This document shows, piece after piece, positions 6,672 through 28,523 of a stretch of DNA of 64,000 nucleotides. The stretch is from Escherichia phage vB_EcoM_LNA6: sequence record OM630585.1; one strand, given 5' to 3'. The notes below the pieces were generated by a model, which searched no databases, had not been told where the DNA came from, and worked only from the letters and a program-made list of their open reading frames with translations. The translations under genes and the position numbers were made by a program. Numbering within the stretch: the stretch's first letter is position 1; the number at the start of each line of letters is the position of its first letter.

Positions 6672-7231
6672 TCAGTGTACCTCAAGCCAATTCTTACCAA
6701 CTTTACCAGTACCAGTTACAAGCGTTTCCTCCTTAAGTCCTAAGTTTCTTGATGCCTGACCATACATCCAGTCAATCACTGCTTTAACATCTTGTGTCAT
6801 CTCTTCTGGGCACTCCCAACTATTTTCATCGTGGTATGCTAGAAGCAATCTAGCACCAATAGCTGGTTTTCGACCATTCAGCTTTGTAAGACCCTCTTCA
6901 CAAGTTCTTCTACAAGCGAGGTTGATGGCTTCATTCTGAACCTGACTTTCCGAACCCATGAGCAGATAATTCAATAGTTTGTGTGGAGATTTACACCACA
7001 ACCATGCACCAGCAACCTTTACAAAACCACCTTTAGAAATTGCAGCAGTCTTACCAAATACCTCTTCAAGAGCCTTCTTAGTGGCTTTGAAGTCAGCTTC
7101 CAAATTATCTATCAACTTTTTAATCTTAGGGAGGCGTACAAAGTAAGTTTGCTTAGTTAAAGCACCTTCTTCGGTTGTTGATGCTTTAATCGTCTTGGCA
7201 AACTTCTCATCACCTGCCCCAAACAATACAT
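6672..7231 (-). CDS. DNA polymerase (family A, T7-type), exon 2
   Basis: Begins LFGAGDEK (second half of motif B, cf. T7 YGAGDEK) and contains HDE-type motif C; in-frame stop immediately upstream shows it is not a free-standing gene. Confidence 0.65.
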
Positions 7232-8035
7232 CTGGTCAATACACTCGCAAGGTGTACCAGTTCTCTTATGAACTTCTCCGCATTTCTACGGAGTGTCGGA
7301 CTATATCACGTAGTAGTAATACTACCGTTGCACTTGGGAATGGTCATTAGCTTACCACCCTACTCTACTCAGTTCATACATTAAGTATGCTTTTCGATAG
7401 TCTCTGAACGTTTCTCTGTTAGGAACTCTAAAATACTATTGTTTACTAAGGTATGCAATTGCTCTCTGCATATTATCAACGCTATCTGCAAGCAACCCCA
7501 AAGCCCTATTGCAATTGTGGCACAACATACCTCTTACTTTTCCGGTTTTGTGGTCATGGTCAACGACAAGTTTAGCCTTATGCCGTGAACTATTCATGAT
7601 AAAACCTTCACCGCCACAAATTTGACATTTGTAATCACAGTTACGGAGTAAGGTTTCAACCTCTTCTCTTTCTAAACCATATGTTCTCAGGTAGTAATTC
7701 TTAACTCTACCTTTCTCTCCGCAATGCGAAGAACAATAAACTTGCCTTGCTGTTCTAGGCATGAACACCTTCTCACAGCTAGGACATTTCTTAGTAAGAA
7801 CCCTATGTTCTGCTCTTCTGTCAAATTTTAATACGCAACTTCTGCACCGTTTTTGATTGTATTGGTATGGTTTAAACTCTGCACCACACTCAGTACACAA
7901 TCTCTCTTTGTAACCTGCCATTGTCTCTCCCCTTTGCTTTAGGAGTCCTAACAGAGACTTCGCTGCTGATTACCATATCTTTACAGACTTAGGCTTCCAG
8001 CAATTCACAACGTTTTACATGCGCCACTGACGCAT
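7232..8035 (-). other. putative group I intron in DNA polymerase gene (boundaries inferred)
   Basis: Polymerase reading frame is broken inside motif B; one junction obeying exon-U / intron-terminal-G rules gives ...KNGIY|VLFGAGDEK; contains HNH ORF. Confidence 0.45.
7436..7921 (-). CDS. HNH endonuclease (intron-encoded)
   Basis: 161 aa; multiple CxxC pairs plus DHDHKTG...HNCN HNH motif; lies between polymerase fragments. Confidence 0.75.
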   Translation of the reverse strand: MAGYKERLCTECGAEFKPYQYNQKRCRSCVLKFDRRAEHRVLTKKCPSCEKVFMPRTARQVYCSSHCGEKGRVKNYYLRTYGLEREEVETLLRNCDYKCQICGGEGFIMNSSRHKAKLVVDHDHKTGKVRGMLCHNCNRALGLLADSVDNMQRAIAYLSKQ

Positions 8036-10172
8036 AAATGCCATTCTTGGCTTTCTTACGACCCTTACTAATTTCTTGAAGAAGGTTTGTATCCTGAGTA
8101 GCTCGACAAGTCAAGATATCTTCCTCTTTATTAAGGCTGAAGTAGATGCTATTTAAAGTATGCGCATCAGTTCCTGAGTACACCACGTACAAGTCATTTT
8201 CAGAATCATAATGCAAATACTTGTCAATCTCTGGGTTTAGATACTGGTCAAAATGTTTGCAATAGTATCTGCCATCCTCTTGTTTGACAAACTCAACTTC
8301 TTCTTTACCCTCTGTCACTGCTTTGGTGAACTCTTTATCACCCATAAAGTTACACAGCAGTACAAGTTGCGCGCTATTCATATCTGCTGAAACAATATTA
8401 GTTCCTTCTTCACAAGTCCACACCTCCCTCATAGGTGCTCCATAGACAGCAGCACCAGACGGTACGTTTACAATACCATATTGTGTCATACGTCCAGTTG
8501 AAGTGCCAAACACCATTGCACCAGCACTAAGGCGACCATCAGGACGAATCTGGTTCAACCAACCTTTTTCATCATCCTTTGAGTTCTCAATAGTTCTGCG
8601 TCGGTGCATCAAAGTATAGTACTTAGCAATCTTCTGTCCAAGCTCACCTTCAATCGTATCATAAGATGATTCAGTAAGTTTTGGTGAAGTACGGATTAAG
8701 CAAGGTTCAAGCAAATCTGTGTATTTCTTCACAGACCAGTTATGCTCAATATACTGTACACCTTCGTGCTCAACATAGCTCAAACCACACCGCTCAACCA
8801 TTTCCTGCCACTTAGGATGTTTTGTAATCATCTTTTTATTGTCTTTGAAACGACAAACTTTGACAGGGCGACCATCTGAGTCTTTCTTGTAGTTCCAGTC
8901 ATCTGGAATCCAACCAACTGATTTCAAGTAGTCTTTAACAACTGCTACCTGAGTCATACGAGAAACTTCAAACTCAATTGGTGTATACGGTGCATCAATC
9001 AAACCTGTGTAGCGACTTGACTCAAGTTCAAAGTGGTTAACAACGTGACTGTTATAGTACTTCACAGTTTTGACTGTTTTTACTGGCTTCCAGTCTTTGC
9101 ATTTCTTACCAATCTTTGCATTCAACTCATTGCAAATTTCACGAGCATCCTTCATTGCTACAAAACCCTCCTTGTACTCTTCACCAGTTACAGAGTTGGT
9201 TGGTGTATAGCAATTTCTCTTTTCAATGTTAAAAATCTTTGTAGTTGGCTTACCAAATGGCTTGATTTCATATGTCTGCATCTCACCATTACGTACCTGC
9301 TGACGATACTTTGTCTTAGGGTACTTGGTAATCCTCTTCAGTCCATCTGCATGACCAAATGTTTCAACATACTCATTCCAAGCCCTTGCAAACTCTTCTC
9401 CAGTGACTTTACCTTTGGTCTTAATAGTTGGAGGAAGATGTGGTTCAACCTCTGAAGCAAGCTCATTAGTCAACTTGTCAAGTTCCTTTACATGGAACTC
9501 CATAAGCTCTTTATCAGCTTTCCAACCATTGATAGCTTGCTGGCTCATCCAGAAAGATGTCTCTTTAGCTCGCATGTAGGTTTCATAAGTGTCTATGCCA
9601 CACTTCTTAAGCTTGAGATACTCGTTATCAAGTGCCCGTTTAGTTTTGGTGTTAATACGGATATCTTCTACAACACGAGTGAAGATTTCTGCATTCCACA
9701 CACCCCAATGTTCAATCTCTGGTTTACGAACACCGACACGAGCACCCCATGCAGCCAAACCATGAGCACCTTTATAACCCCTTGGAGTTGGTCTATCCAT
9801 CCACTGAACACGAGACTGAATAAGAGAATCCTGAAAGAAATTACTCCACGGCTTACACTTTGGATTATCAAAGTTCCATAAATCAGGTGCAATGTGATTG
9901 AAAACCCACCAGTCATAACCGAGACCGTTATGGATGCAAAGACGTTTTGCCTTTAACGCAAACTCAACACCTTCACGTAAACCACCCTTAATGTACTTGG
10001 TATACTTGTGACCGAGGATAGGCTCATCTGTGAAGACCCATACAGGTGGCTCTTCATCGTCAGATTTATAGTCTGCAAAAGCCATTACGTGAACTTTAGT
10101 GAACTCAAGGAGTAAACCATCAGTCTCTGTATCACCAACCAAATGTAAGTTTTTAAAATCTATGTTTTCCAT
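8036..10172 (-). CDS. DNA polymerase (family A, T7-type), exon 1
   Basis: N-terminal DTETDG 3'-5' exonuclease motif; HGLAAWGARVG and NGLGYD resemble T7 gp5; tail KAKNGIY is first half of motif B; 3' boundary inferred. Confidence 0.7.
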
Positions 10173-23810: not shown

Positions 23811-23833
23811 AGGGTCTCTTCGGAGACCTTTTT
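23811..23833 (+). terminator. intrinsic terminator
   Basis: gggtctcTTCGgagacc hairpin + TTTTT. Confidence 0.6.
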
Positions 23834-23852
23834 AGCATGTAAAGGGGCAATA

Positions 23853-25049
23853 ATGAACAAAGTACAGATTATTAAAAAGAACGGCTCACTTGAAGAACCT
23901 GATATCAAAAAAGTTTTAGCAGCAGTCACAAAGTCAGCTAACAGAGTTGGTTATAAAGAGCTTCCACCAGATGTTACTCAAGCTCTTGAGTCAGCATTTA
24001 TGAGGATTCTGGTAAAATCTACTAAGCAGAATAATTTACTCGTTTCAGTAAATGATATTCACAGTATTGTTGAGGGTGCTTTGGCAGAAGTCAATCACGA
24101 GATTTATGAGTCTTACTCAACATATAGAAATTACCGTAAAGAGGTTGCTCAAAATTGGGATGAACTTTACCAGAAGACCAAAGATACACTCTTCTTAGGT
24201 GACCGAGAAAACGCTAATTTTGACAGCAGTTTAATTTCTACAAAAGGTTCAATTATTCGTGGTTACCTGACTAAAGAAATCTTTAAACAGTACCACTTAA
24301 CACCAGAGGAACTTGAAGCCATTGAAAAAGGGTTTATTTATATCCATGACTTAAGAGACCTAATTTTTGGTGGTATCAACTGTTGTCTGTTTGACATTGG
24401 TAAAGTGCTGAAAGGTGGCTTTGAAATGTCTGGCATTGAATATTGTGAACCGAAGTCTGTACTGTCAGCATTACAGGTTATTGGCGATGTAGTTCTTTCA
24501 GCAACTGCACAGCAATTTGGTGGCTTTACTTTAGCAGAGATTGATAAGGTACTTGTACCGTATGCTAAAAAATCTTTAGTGTACCACTCAGAGAAAGCTG
24601 AAGAGTACGGAATCCCTAAAGAGCAACACTATAATTACGTAATGGAGCAATTACAGAATGAGTTAACACAAGGTTTCCAATCTCTTGAAATGAAACTTAA
24701 CACTGTTCCTTGCAGTCGCGGTGATTTTGCATTTACTACTCTGACATTTGGTCTGTTGGAACCAGATATGCACAATGAAGATAACCGTCTTCAGTTTATG
24801 ATTGCCAATACAATCCTTAACGTAAGGATGAACGGGCAAGGAAAAAGCAAAAAACCTGTTGTGTTCCCTAAACTTGTGTATATCTATGAAGAAACGAGAC
24901 ATAAGCTTGATGTATGCCAAGTAAGGTTGTTTGAAAAAGCTATTGAGTGTTGCTCTAAAGCTATGTATCCAGATTTCTTAAGTGTATCTGGTCATGGTGC
25001 TGTAGCAGAGGCTTTTGAGCGTTCTGGTAAGGTAATTTCCCCGATGGGT
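23853..25049 (+). CDS. nrdD: anaerobic ribonucleotide reductase, exon 1
   Basis: N-terminal ATP-cone; ends ...KVISPMG and continues in frame as CRAFLSPYH... at 25792. Confidence 0.8.
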
Positions 25050-25791
25050 TAACAAGCTCTATAGCTCATCTAAAACGTGCCTAAACAGGGAAACTCTACA
25101 GATGTAGACAATCCTGTGCTAAATGATGTACGATGTAAGAAACTATACAACATAGGAGTCTTACATGCCAAACTATCACGTCACTGAAGATGGAAAAGTC
25201 TTTAGGGAAAATGGTGTAGAGCTTACGCAGTGGAAATCCAACACTGGGTATATGAAAGTGAGGTTTTACGGTAAGAAGAATCGTGACATGTATGTCCACA
25301 GGTTAGTTGCTGAGAAATATGTACCTAACCCGAACAATCTTCCAATTGTAAAACATAAGGACGATAACAAACTAAATAACCACGTATCTAACTTAGAATG
25401 GGGTACTCATTCTGAGAATGCTAAAGAAGGTTATGAGAATGGATGCTACAAGTTCCACAAGCGTTCATATGCCGTGAAAGCCACACACAAAGTGACAAAG
25501 GAAGTTATTGTTACTAAGTCAATACGAGAGTTATCCAATATACTTGGATACAATCGCAAGACCATCTCTTCAATATTGAAGGGTGTAAAAGAGCATAATA
25601 ACTTCGAATATGAGTTTGAATACATCTAAATGCCGAACGACTAACCGTGATGAATGTAGCGGTGTAGGGTCAAGCGACTCGAAATGGTACGCTACTTAGA
25701 AATAAGTAGAAGATATAGTCTGGACTTACTGGCGACAGTAAGCAGCTTGAATAAAGCGGGGTAAGCTTAGCGAACTTACCTGAACAATAAG
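25050..25791 (+). other. putative group I intron in nrdD
   Basis: 742 nt between exons; exon 1 ends in T, intron ends in G, spliced product is colinear NrdD; carries an HNH ORF. Confidence 0.6.
25165..25629 (+). CDS. HNH homing endonuclease (intron-encoded)
   Basis: 154 aa; HRLVAEKYV...NN...N HNH-type motif, AGGAG RBS; inside nrdD intron. Confidence 0.7.
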   Translation: MPNYHVTEDGKVFRENGVELTQWKSNTGYMKVRFYGKKNRDMYVHRLVAEKYVPNPNNLPIVKHKDDNKLNNHVSNLEWGTHSENAKEGYENGCYKFHKRSYAVKATHKVTKEVIVTKSIRELSNILGYNRKTISSILKGVKEHNNFEYEFEYI

Positions 25792-26739
25792 TGTAGAGCA
25801 TTTTTATCACCATACCATAACGAATATGGTGAAGAGTTTTATGTAGGTCGTGCTAACATTGGTGCTGTATCTTTGAACTTACCAATGATTTACCAGTATT
25901 CTAAAGAGAAGGGCTTAGATTTCTGGAAAGAGCTTGATAAGTACCTAGAGATGATTCGCAGCTTCCACAAGAAACGCTACGAAATGATTGCTAATATGCC
26001 AGCAAGTTCTAACCCTCTTGCATTCACACAAGGTGGTCTGTACAAAGGGACTAAGAAACCTACTGACAAGGTTGGTTGGGATATCGTGAAGTCCTTCACA
26101 GCTTCTTTTGGGGTTACTGCTCTTGATGAACTGTCTGTTCTTGCTGAAGGTAAACGACTTCATGAAGTTGGAAGATATAGTTTTGCATACGATGTTCTGG
26201 AATACATCAACATGAAAACTGAAGAGTTTAAGAACGAAGATGGCTTCTTGTATGCGGTATATGGCACTCCAGCAGAATCACTTTGTGGAACTCAGTTAAA
26301 ACAGTTCAGAGATATGTTTGGCGTTATTAAAGGTGTCTCTGACAAGGAATACTTTACAAACAGTTTCCATATGAATGTTGCAGCAGACATCTCACCATTT
26401 GAGAAGCAGGACTTAGAAGAGCCATTCTTCCATATCTGTAGAGGTGGCAGAATCCAGTATGTAAGGGTAGCTAACCCAGAAAACTTAACAGCACTTAAAA
26501 GTTGTATTACCAGAGGGATGTTGAAGGGTTTTTATCAGGGACTTAACTTTAACTTAGCAATCTGTGAACATTGTGGTAACAGACCAAAGGCTGATGTTGA
26601 AGAATGTGAGGTTTGTCATTCACACGATATCTCTGTGATTAACAGGGTGTGCGGATATTTGGGATGGACTAAGATTAAAGGTGAATCCCGAATGAATGAT
26701 GCAAAAATCGCTGAGATTCGTGACAGAATTTCTATGTAA
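25792..26739 (+). CDS. nrdD: anaerobic ribonucleotide reductase, exon 2
   Basis: C-terminal CEHCG...CEVC zinc site and RVCGYLG glycyl-radical motif. Confidence 0.8.
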   Translation, partial: CRAFLSPYHNEYGEEFYVGRANIGAVSLNLPMIYQYSKEKGLDFWKELDKYLEMIRSFHKKRYEMIANMPASSNPLAFTQGGLYKGTKKPTDKVGWDIVKSFTASFGVTALDELSVLAEGKRLHEVGRYSFAYDVLEYINMKTEEFKNEDGFLYAVYGTPAESLCGTQLKQFRDMFGVIKGVSDKEYFTNSFHMNVAADISPFEKQDLEEPFFHICRGGRIQYVRVANPENLTALKSCITRGMLKGFYQGLNFNLAICEHCGNRPKADVEECEVCHSHDISVINRVCGYLGWTKIKGESRMNDAKIAEIRDRISM

Positions 26740-26750
26740 AACTTGACAAG

Positions 26751-27137
26751 GTGATGTGGGTCTTGATAGGCTTACATCACCTTTTTATTTGGAGTTACAT
26801 TATGGACTTGTGGCTTTATGTAGCAGCTTGTGGGATTGTATGTCTGATAATCTTATTTATTCTTGGAATAATGCGATTTAGAGACATAATACAGTCAGAT
26901 TTTTTGCCTGAGTTTGCCATGATAGTTGGGGTTATTGCCCTTTGTGTCTTGGCAGTGTTCTATTCATACAAAACTGTGATATGGATGGAGGCAAACAATT
27001 GTGTAAAAACTCATCAGCATCGTGAGGTTACTCATTTTGTGAGTGTACTTAGTGGTAGCACCACTATACTTGTCCCACAAACTTCTGTAGAGTATCTTTA
27101 CACATGTGATAATGGTAAAACTATATGGTGGAATTAA
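26751..27137 (+). CDS. membrane protein (hypothetical)
   Basis: 128 aa with hydrophobic segments. Confidence 0.35.
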   Translation: MMWVLIGLHHLFIWSYIMDLWLYVAACGIVCLIILFILGIMRFRDIIQSDFLPEFAMIVGVIALCVLAVFYSYKTVIWMEANNCVKTHQHREVTHFVSVLSGSTTILVPQTSVEYLYTCDNGKTIWWN

Positions 27138-28037: not shown

Positions 28038-28523
28038 ATGAATTACATGGAGATTAGACCATTTGACACAGCTAATGGTGAAGGGGTTCGTGTAAGCCTC
28101 TTCGTAGCTGGCTGTAAACATCACTGTGAAGGCTGCTTTAACAGGGAGTCTTGGAAGTTTAATGCTGGTAAAGTATTTACTTATGCAAACCTCTACGGCA
28201 TCATTAAGTTAATGGATGATGAGGCCATCAGTGGGTTGTCAATACTTGGTGGGGAGCCTCTGGATGATAGAAACATTCAAGAGGTCACCAACATATGCAA
28301 ACGTATTAAAACTGTTTATCCAGAAAAGTCTATATGGCTTTGGACAGGTTTTCAACTGCACGAAAAAATCCACTTAGATGTGATGAAATATGTTGACGTG
28401 GTGATTGATGGTAAGTATGATTCATCTAAACCAACAGTTAAACCATATCGTGGTTCTGATAACCAAAACCTCTGGAGAAAAGAGTATGGATGGCAAGGTG
28501 ATTGTCAATGGCGAGCAGAGTGA
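28038..28523 (+). CDS. nrdG: anaerobic ribonucleotide reductase activating protein
   Basis: N-terminal radical-SAM Cys cluster (CKHHCEGC) and overall NrdG size. Confidence 0.8.
   Translation: MNYMEIRPFDTANGEGVRVSLFVAGCKHHCEGCFNRESWKFNAGKVFTYANLYGIIKLMDDEAISGLSILGGEPLDDRNIQEVTNICKRIKTVYPEKSIWLWTGFQLHEKIHLDVMKYVDVVIDGKYDSSKPTVKPYRGSDNQNLWRKEYGWQGDCQWRAE

Follow-up and report, generated by a model that had tools for sequence, protein, structure and literature searches.

The nrdD locus and the intron boundaries

The window analysed here is a stretch of 64,000 nucleotides (nt) of Escherichia phage vB_EcoM_LNA6 (sequence record OM630585.1), and this report concerns its gene nrdD (23853-26739), which is divided by an insert that we assign to the group I introns and that carries an HNH endonuclease gene of its own. 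For the region 23853-26739 the identity to Escherichia phage pinkbiff is 97.6%, dozens of further Felixounavirus (Felix O1-like) genomes match it at 92-97%, and by this similarity the source of the window is a Felix O1-like phage (Felixounavirus). The exons, the intron and all parts of the intron described below lie on the plus strand.

Exon 1 (23853-25049) comprises 399 codons for the ATP-cone and the N-terminal half of NrdD. It was recognized by its open reading frame (ORF) and Pfam matches, and its 3' limit was set by alignment to intronless genes; the ORF as it stands (23853-25052) closes with ...KVISPMG followed by TAA, so that exon 1 ends ...SPMG with T as its last base (25049). Exon 2 (25792-26739) has Cys400 as its first codon, reads CRAFLSPYHNEYGEEFYVGRANIGAVSLNLP... 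in frame from 25792 and holds the RVCGYLG motif. The Pfam NRDD profile is distributed over both exons, exon 1 covering its positions 1-250 and exon 2 positions 264-560, while the ATP-cone profile falls in exon 1 and Gly_radical in exon 2. Joined in silico, the exons give a coding sequence (CDS) of 2145 nt for 714 amino acids, the same length as the intronless genes of bumzen and Felix O1. The spliced protein aligns with T4 NrdD (the crystal-structure sequence) without a gap across the junction (E 3.5e-78); in this alignment Cys400 faces Cys290, and RVCGYLG falls on the glycyl-radical region. Cys290 of T4 NrdD is the thiyl-radical cysteine; thus, by this alignment, the intron sits directly before the catalytic cysteine codon. 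With the NRDD and ATP-cone profiles, the thiyl-radical cysteine and the glycyl-radical motif all present in the sequence, the gene is identified as that of a class III ribonucleotide reductase, NrdD.

The exact boundaries of the intron are established by the alignment to intronless alleles. The nrdD genes of bumzen and Felix O1 read ...CCGATGGGT / TGCAGAGC... unbroken (the stroke marks the junction, with TGC after it), and ...CCGATGGGTTGCAGAGCTTTCTTATCTCC... around the site. The 742 extra bases of the window fall exactly between GGT and TGY, which is TGT here. By alignment alone a shift of 1 nt would be possible owing to a shared T; since only 25050-25791 gives a U before the 5' splice site and a G as the last intron base (25791), that boundary was chosen. 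The intron so defined opens with an in-frame TAA. The expected spliced sequence is ...CCGATGGGT / TGTAGAGCA..., and the predicted junction peptide, spanning G399 and C400, is ...VISPMGCRAFLSPY... (also written VISPMGCRAFLSPYHNEYGEEFYVGR). The first-pass annotation of the window had described nrdD as split by a 742-nt intron, with exon 1 ending in ...KVISPMG and in the base T, exon 2 starting at 25792 and the intron ending in G; the intronless alignment confirms all of these coordinates and both terminal bases, an agreement well outside what chance would give. It had also named production of NrdD as two separate polypeptides as the case that would speak against an intron. Exon 2 contains no in-frame ATG, GTG or TTG before 25873, so that the Cys codon at 25792 would be untranslatable without splicing, and two separate polypeptides are therefore very unlikely.

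Two other kinds of insert were considered and rejected. An intein does not fit, as the insert opens with an in-frame stop codon and its ORF lies in another frame with its own ribosome-binding site. A group II intron was likewise set aside, on account of the small size of the insert, its lack of a reverse transcriptase and its fit to a group I core.

The RNA fold and the intron-encoded endonuclease

Both exon ends are predicted to pair with a single internal guide sequence (25057-25070). Its 3' part, GCUCAUC (25064-25070), is complementary to the last seven bases of exon 1, GAUGGGU (25043-25049), and the resulting P1 helix has a U25049·G25064 pair at the splice site, U25049 being the 5' splice-site U. 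Its 5' part, CUCUAUA (25057-25063), pairs with the first seven bases of exon 2, UGUAGAG (25792-25798), to form a P10 helix of 7 bp. The two guides are contiguous, as is expected for exon alignment, and all 14 pairs are standard, so the guide is fully complementary to both exon ends. P1 also covaries among relatives; for example, the outermost G-C pair becomes U·G or C-G.

The remaining helices form a 5' core and a 3' core separated by the endonuclease ORF, both supported by RNAalifold and by pair counts. The 5' core (25076-25119) contains the 5' strand of P3 (25076-25081), P4 (25085-25090 with 25112-25117), P5 (25095-25099 with 25104-25108) and the 5' strand of P6 (25118-25119). The 5' strand of P6a, GAUGUA (25125-25130), pairs with 25621-25626; a second GAUGUA at 25132 could serve as an alternative 5' strand, and compensatory changes are found at six of the six P6a pairs among relatives. 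The 3' core (25621-25780) begins with the 3' strand of P6a (25621-25626) and that of P6 (25632-25633), followed by P7 (GACUA with UAGUC; 25639-25643 with 25716-25720). Between P7 and the 3' strand of P3 (25686-25691) stand two covarying helices, P7.1 (25644-25647 with 25660-25663) and P7.2 (25667-25671 with 25676-25680). P8 (25692-25698 with 25703-25709), P9 (25725-25731 with 25736-25742) and P9.2 (25760-25765 with 25775-25780) complete the core, together with P9.1 (25745-25748 with 25754-25757), which was assigned by hand and lies outside the counted structure. The window retains every core helix intact, and P2 is absent. The first-pass annotation had proposed folding the intron for P1-P9 and a guide sequence, and P1, P10 and P3-P9 with P7.1 and P7.2 were recovered.

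Covariation was counted on related introns gathered from the phages JSE, navn, HMD-6 and ECGD1, Vibrio phage F100 and two Aeromonas phages, together with RB3 td and T4 nrdD. A plain MAFFT alignment of the whole intron regions showed homology and the common site and was unusable for pair counts; nine cores (about 270 positions) were therefore aligned and trimmed by hand, with each ORF loop replaced by GAAA. On these nine cores RNAalifold predicted P1, P3, P4, P5, P6, P6a, P7.1, P7.2, P8, P9 and P9.2, with a compensatory change in 37 of 64 pairs. The structure that was counted is this fold with P7 added (the P3/P7 pseudoknot) and two small pairings removed. Its pair cells are paired in 97.8% of cases, as against 81.5% in shuffled alignments and 37-41% when the partners are slid by 1-3 columns. 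Changes on both sides occur in 36 of 65 pairs, and none of 500 shuffles reached the observed measures.

Database models agree with this fold once the ORF is out of the way. A scan of the whole window against Rfam at the gathering threshold returned tRNAs only and missed the intron. A search by E-value gave two partial Intron_gpI matches, one over P4-P6 (25085-25168) and one of 33.1 bits (threshold 50) whose well-aligned part is the P7-P9 side; the score is low because the ORF loop of 490 nt splits the model. The ORF-less 316-nt copy in momo, which is near-identical to the window intron in the shared parts, scores 53.4 bits against Intron_gpI (RF00028; threshold 50, E 6e-13). The identity of the aligned core to the td and T4 nrdD introns is 66-70%. 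With the covarying core and this above-threshold copy in support, the earlier claim of a group I intron stands, and by sequence and fold the insert belongs to the T4 td/nrdD (IA2-like) type; subgroup IA2 is the class of the T4 td/nrdD/nrdB-type introns.

The loop of P6a holds the ORF, at 25165-25629 as had been annotated, and the 3' strand of this helix coincides with the final two sense codons of the ORF. The encoded protein of 154 amino acids matches Pfam HNH_3 (E 1.3e-10; 41.2 bits, cut-off 24.8) over 44 of the 46 profile positions and PHROG 59 'HNH endonuclease' (E 1.8e-43), and it has a full-length match to I-HmuI (PDB 1U3E; E 5.6e-9) that extends to the C terminus of I-HmuI. In addition, residues 99-150 match PHROG 3855 'HTH DNA binding protein' (E 5.8e-4). 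By these matches the ORF is predicted to encode an I-HmuI-like HNH homing endonuclease. A ribosome-binding site, AGGAG (25154-25158), lies 6 nt upstream of the ATG. In the minimum-free-energy fold (z = -2.1) it is enclosed by a predicted hairpin (25133-25166), in which AUGUAAGA (25133-25140) pairs with UCUUACAU (25159-25166) and thereby with the A and U of the start codon. One may speculate that this hairpin restrains translation of the endonuclease, by analogy with the T4 intron endonucleases. A promoter scan gave six sigma-70-like sites against 9.7 expected by chance, and we claim no separate promoter for the endonuclease gene.

Allelic states, proposed homing and rival explanations

The genomes compared establish that three states of the nrdD site coexist in Felixounavirus, namely an intron with the endonuclease gene, an intron without it and no intron. 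Approximately 60 phage records carry the intron with the gene. A further 35 or so match the intron at >=90% identity but not over its full length, and each of those inspected has a 316-nt form. The uninterrupted junction is found in well over 100 related records, again an approximate count. Over the full intron, the identity among intron-carrying Felixounavirus records is 92-99.9%. In pairwise alignment the 316-nt form, for example that of momo (L005:1701-2016), lacks 426 nt corresponding to 25171-25596; it keeps the start-codon region, which now reads ATA in place of ATG, and the final 33 nt of the ORF. All four of the ORF-less intron matches listed are 316 nt long, and this uniform span suggests a single deletion event.

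Homologous introns occupy the identical ATGGGT/TGY site in JSE, navn, HMD-6, ECGD1 and Vibrio phage F100. A homologous HNH ORF lies in P6a in JSE, navn, HMD-6 and F100, and ECGD1 has no ORF. T4 itself reads CCGATGGGT / TGC at the Cys site, the same as the intronless Felixounavirus target, so the target DNA is preserved even between phages very distant from one another. A scan of IMG/VR for the motif yielded 24 further contigs, most of them compatible in size with phage groups already known here to carry the intron.

Several further features of these relatives deserve mention. F100 (L003:224-1384) and navn (L010:1383-1692) have a second, upstream interruption of nrdD besides the one at the Cys site, and that of F100 carries an HNH endonuclease ORF of 309 amino acids. 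The GenBank CDS of ECGD1 (L008:1522-3611) is a join of two pieces, of which the first includes a stop codon and the second starts at an ATG built from the last intron bases. We rejected this join as a prior intron annotation, because its breakpoints, reckoned from the sequence, are ORF ends and not splice sites. ORF-less introns of the same subfamily, with the P7.1 loop UGAUGAAUGUAG in common, are present in the Aeromonas phages 2L372D (L009:2420-2802), where the intron splits the terminase large-subunit gene, and phiA047 (L014), where it lies between two ORFs for hypothetical proteins. Finally, MG065668 (labelled Campylobacter phage A126) and GU169904 (labelled Staphylococcus phage SA1) contain Felixounavirus nrdD DNA at 97% and 88% identity; these hosts are odd for such a match, which suggests mislabelled or mixed records.

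The exons flanking the intron differ in how far they follow its presence. In the first 54 nt of exon 2 (25792-25845) nine substitutions, most of them synonymous, are fixed between the intron-carrying genomes (window and momo) and the intronless ones (bumzen and Felix O1), while the last 156 nt of exon 1 show no intron-linked difference among the same four. This tract is a candidate for co-conversion or for the recognition region of the endonuclease, and the asymmetry would be consistent with co-conversion during homing, or with an endonuclease that reads the 3' exon, as I-HmuI does.

From these observations we conclude, with a probability of about 0.88, that nrdD carries at 25050-25791 a mobile group I intron of the T4 td/nrdD type, which splices to give a 714-residue NrdD and bears an I-HmuI-like homing endonuclease gene. 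The conclusion builds on the boundaries, the covarying fold, the family of the endonuclease, the three allelic states and the occurrence at the same site in other phage groups, from which we infer splicing in vivo and, by analogy, the activity and target of the endonuclease. In the proposed mechanism, the last seven bases of exon 1 would pair with GCUCAUC as P1, with the U·G pair at the splice site, and the first seven bases of exon 2 would pair with the adjacent CUCUAUA as P10. The P3-P9 core, with the guanosine pocket in P7, would then catalyse two transesterifications, by which GGT is joined to TGT and the 714-residue enzyme is restored, the first codon of exon 2 being that of the catalytic cysteine. 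The in-frame TAA, as the first codon of the intron, would halt ribosomes at the intron border. During mixed infection the HNH endonuclease would, by analogy, nick or cut an intronless nrdD near ...CCGATGGGT / TGCAGAGC..., the candidate intronless target containing CCGATGGGTTGCAGAGCTTTCTTATC, and recombinational repair would transfer the intron to the recipient together with part of the adjoining exon sequence.

Several points weigh against this interpretation. Splicing and homing are inferred from sequence. The P7 helix is invariant, so its pairing is backed by conservation only. Covariation was counted on only nine hand-trimmed sequences with GAAA in place of the ORF loops, and the structure tested is largely the output of RNAalifold on the same alignment, which favours it over the slid controls. 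The window intron itself, at 33.1 bits, stays below the Rfam threshold of 50, and only its ORF-less relative reaches it. The cluster in exon 2 rests on two intron-carrying and two intronless genomes, NUMOD1 scores 17.6 bits on the ORF protein with a cut-off of 22.8, and many intron copies are without the endonuclease gene, so the copy in the window could be inactive too.

A first alternative, which we regard as unlikely, is an intron that splices and is now immobile, inherited vertically only, with an HNH ORF that is inactive or has no available target. Such a state is known from the T4 nrdB intron, which has an inactive I-TevIII (PMC2988022), and about one third of the Felixounavirus copies are without the ORF. 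However, the ORF of the window is full-length and aligns end-to-end with I-HmuI, with HNH_3 nearly completely covered, the composite element is present at the same site in unrelated phage groups, and the intron-linked substitution tract in exon 2 suggests past co-conversion.

The insert could also be an endonuclease cassette that does not splice, so that nrdD is cut into two genes whose products reassemble, as with mobE in nrdA of Aeromonas phage Aeh1. GenBank records and two papers do indeed present the locus as a pair of nrdD ORFs separated by a homing endonuclease, and a non-splicing split ribonucleotide reductase has its precedent in the Aeh1 enzyme, which PMC7344957 cites and calls anaerobic. 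We consider this very improbable, though, as the ORF is embedded in a complete group I core with covarying helices, the guides are complementary to the ends of both exons and a separate C-terminal protein would be without 27 residues, the catalytic Cys among them. Moreover, the ORF-less 316-nt form still splits nrdD in many phages; thus, the endonuclease gene is not what splits it.

That the insert is a decayed, non-splicing relic in an nrdD pseudogene, dispensable thanks to the aerobic NrdAB encoded upstream, would fit the decay of endonuclease genes in the lineage (the ORF-less copies) and the class I ribonucleotide reductase that these phages also encode, but it is hardly credible, since the core helices are intact and the core is near-unchanged among intron-carrying Felixounavirus, and since both exons are open and differ between the window and momo, both intron-carrying, by 50 synonymous and 10 nonsynonymous codon differences, a pattern that places nrdD under purifying selection.

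Wider setting and comparison with known systems

The genes around nrdD follow the order nrdB, glutaredoxin, small membrane protein, nrdD, small ORFs and nrdG, in agreement with the order published for related Felix O1-like phages. Shortly before nrdD stands an nrdB-like ORF, and downstream of it, at 28038-28523, an ORF resembles NrdG both in sequence and in its place in the gene order of related phages. Two hairpins flank nrdD: at 23811-23835, just ahead of its start, a short GC-rich one bordered by T runs on either side, and at 26748-26783, directly behind its stop codon, a terminator-like one of 16 pairs with a T run after it.

A polymerase intron had also been annotated elsewhere in the window, and the sequence there fits that annotation. 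On the minus strand (6672-10172), two ORFs match DNA_pol_A below the Pfam cut-off, 7989-10172 weakly (E 9e-4) and 6672-7226 over the C-terminal part of the profile (E 2.2e-6). An ORF of the Endonuclease_7 family (7436-7921; E 2.7e-19) lies between these two polymerase ORFs, and a partial Rfam Intron_gpI match of 28.1 bits covers the P4-P6 region at 7870-8006, also on the minus strand. The gene of a family-A DNA polymerase is thus probably split, judging from these matches, by a second group I intron with an endonuclease of another family. In another part of the window, an array of 24 tRNA genes occupies the plus strand from 58323 to 63552, within which 60537-60624 also matches tRNA-Sec weakly.

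In the literature on these phages the insert is described in other terms. Introns are stated to be absent in the Felix O1 genome paper (PMC3185647), and this statement is correct for Felix O1, since that phage is intronless at the nrdD site. Bardina et al. (2016) described a "split gene (nrdD)" with a putative homing endonuclease gene in UAB_Phi87 and relatives, the endonuclease of UAB_Phi87 being 53% identical to the JSE protein (PMC4837284), and Moreno Switt et al. (2013) reported homing endonuclease genes inserted into genes and never used the word intron (PMC3728262). In our literature search, Felixounavirus combined with "group I intron" brought up no paper in which the nrdD insert is called a group I intron. 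For Pectobacterium phage CB7, reverse-transcription PCR showed splicing of HNH-containing introns, including those in genes for ribonucleotide reductase subunits (PMC7344957), and by this precedent splicing of the window intron is plausible. Mobile group I introns of the T4 type are a well-known kind; the copy in the window is a newly delimited example of it in phages whose literature speaks of a split gene, and it leaves the current understanding of introns unchanged.

The consequences for annotation and for study of the element are nevertheless practical. Database records give two nrdD fragments and a stray endonuclease gene, and the true splice sites appear in none of the annotations seen; the corrected annotation is one enzyme of 714 amino acids with its junction between G399 and C400. 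Within an essential-type gene, the selfish element has its target in the most highly conserved DNA, CCGATGGGT / TGY, where the loop of the catalytic cysteine is encoded, and this conserved target may explain the spread of the intron and endonuclease gene to at least five phage lineages. A single genus of easily grown coliphages and Salmonella phages shows all three stages of the homing cycle, with many isolates of each, and would be a natural system well suited to quantifying homing, co-conversion and the decay of the endonuclease.

The closest comparison by host gene is the T4 nrdD (sunY) intron, which the first-pass annotation had singled out for this purpose. The gene and the intron type are indeed the same, whereas the site and the endonuclease differ (Tyr180 and I-TevII in T4; a site equivalent to T4 Gly289/Cys290 and an HNH protein here). 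Both introns lack P2, have P7.1 and P7.2 and open with an in-frame UAA, and their aligned cores are about 70% identical. The T4 guide is GCUCAUG and that of the window GCUCAUC, with exon targets AUGAGU and AUGGGU, respectively. The T4 intron splits the codon of Tyr180 (...TATGAGT, intron, ATGAAG...), which is equivalent to Met280 of the window protein, while the window intron lies between Gly399 and Cys400, corresponding to T4 Gly289 and Cys290 and about 110 codons downstream of the T4 site. The endonuclease is the GIY-YIG protein I-TevII in T4, with its ORF after P9 in the 3' part of the intron, instead of an HNH protein encoded in the P6a loop, and the intron is 1033 nt long compared with 742 nt. 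The window intron is therefore not the T4 nrdD intron itself, a candidate that we rejected for its other site and for its HNH ORF in place of that of I-TevII. The T4/RB3 td intron, with I-TevI, shares the placement of the ORF in the P6a loop and the same helix set; its 3' half is about 71% identical to the window intron at the DNA level, and the aligned core is 66% identical. It differs in the presence of P2, in its host gene for thymidylate synthase and in its GIY-YIG endonuclease.

The introns of JSE (Krischvirus), navn and HMD-6 (Vequintavirus), ECGD1 (Justusliebigvirus) and Vibrio phage F100, all of other phage families than the window phage, have cores 68-75% identical to that of the window. 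Those of JSE, navn, HMD-6 and ECGD1 start with AAAC... and meet a stop three codons in, whereas that of F100 starts with TAAG... and thus, like the window intron, has an immediate in-frame stop. By eye, the potential for P10 is weaker or displaced in JSE, ECGD1 and navn. Regarding the endonuclease, I-HmuI from the DNA polymerase intron of Bacillus phage SPO1 is of the same size class (174 amino acids, compared with 154 here) and shares the conserved HKD...NN...NL.W stretch and, possibly, a C-terminal tail resembling a helix-turn-helix. The two differ in their host gene and target, and their sequence identity is low. I-HmuI nicks one strand.

Lastly, the T4 sunY intron and the window intron might represent one lineage at two sites of nrdD. 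We put this forward tentatively, as a doubtful suggestion, because the two are of the same structural type with about 70% core identity, near-identical guides and look-alike exon hexamers. An ectopic move by reverse splicing into a guide-matching exon hexamer about 110 codons away would account for the two sites, and each intron copy would have captured its endonuclease independently, a GIY-YIG gene after P9 in T4 and an HNH gene in P6a here. If so, sequenced phage genomes would hold a natural record of intron transposition and of the invasion and loss of endonuclease genes.

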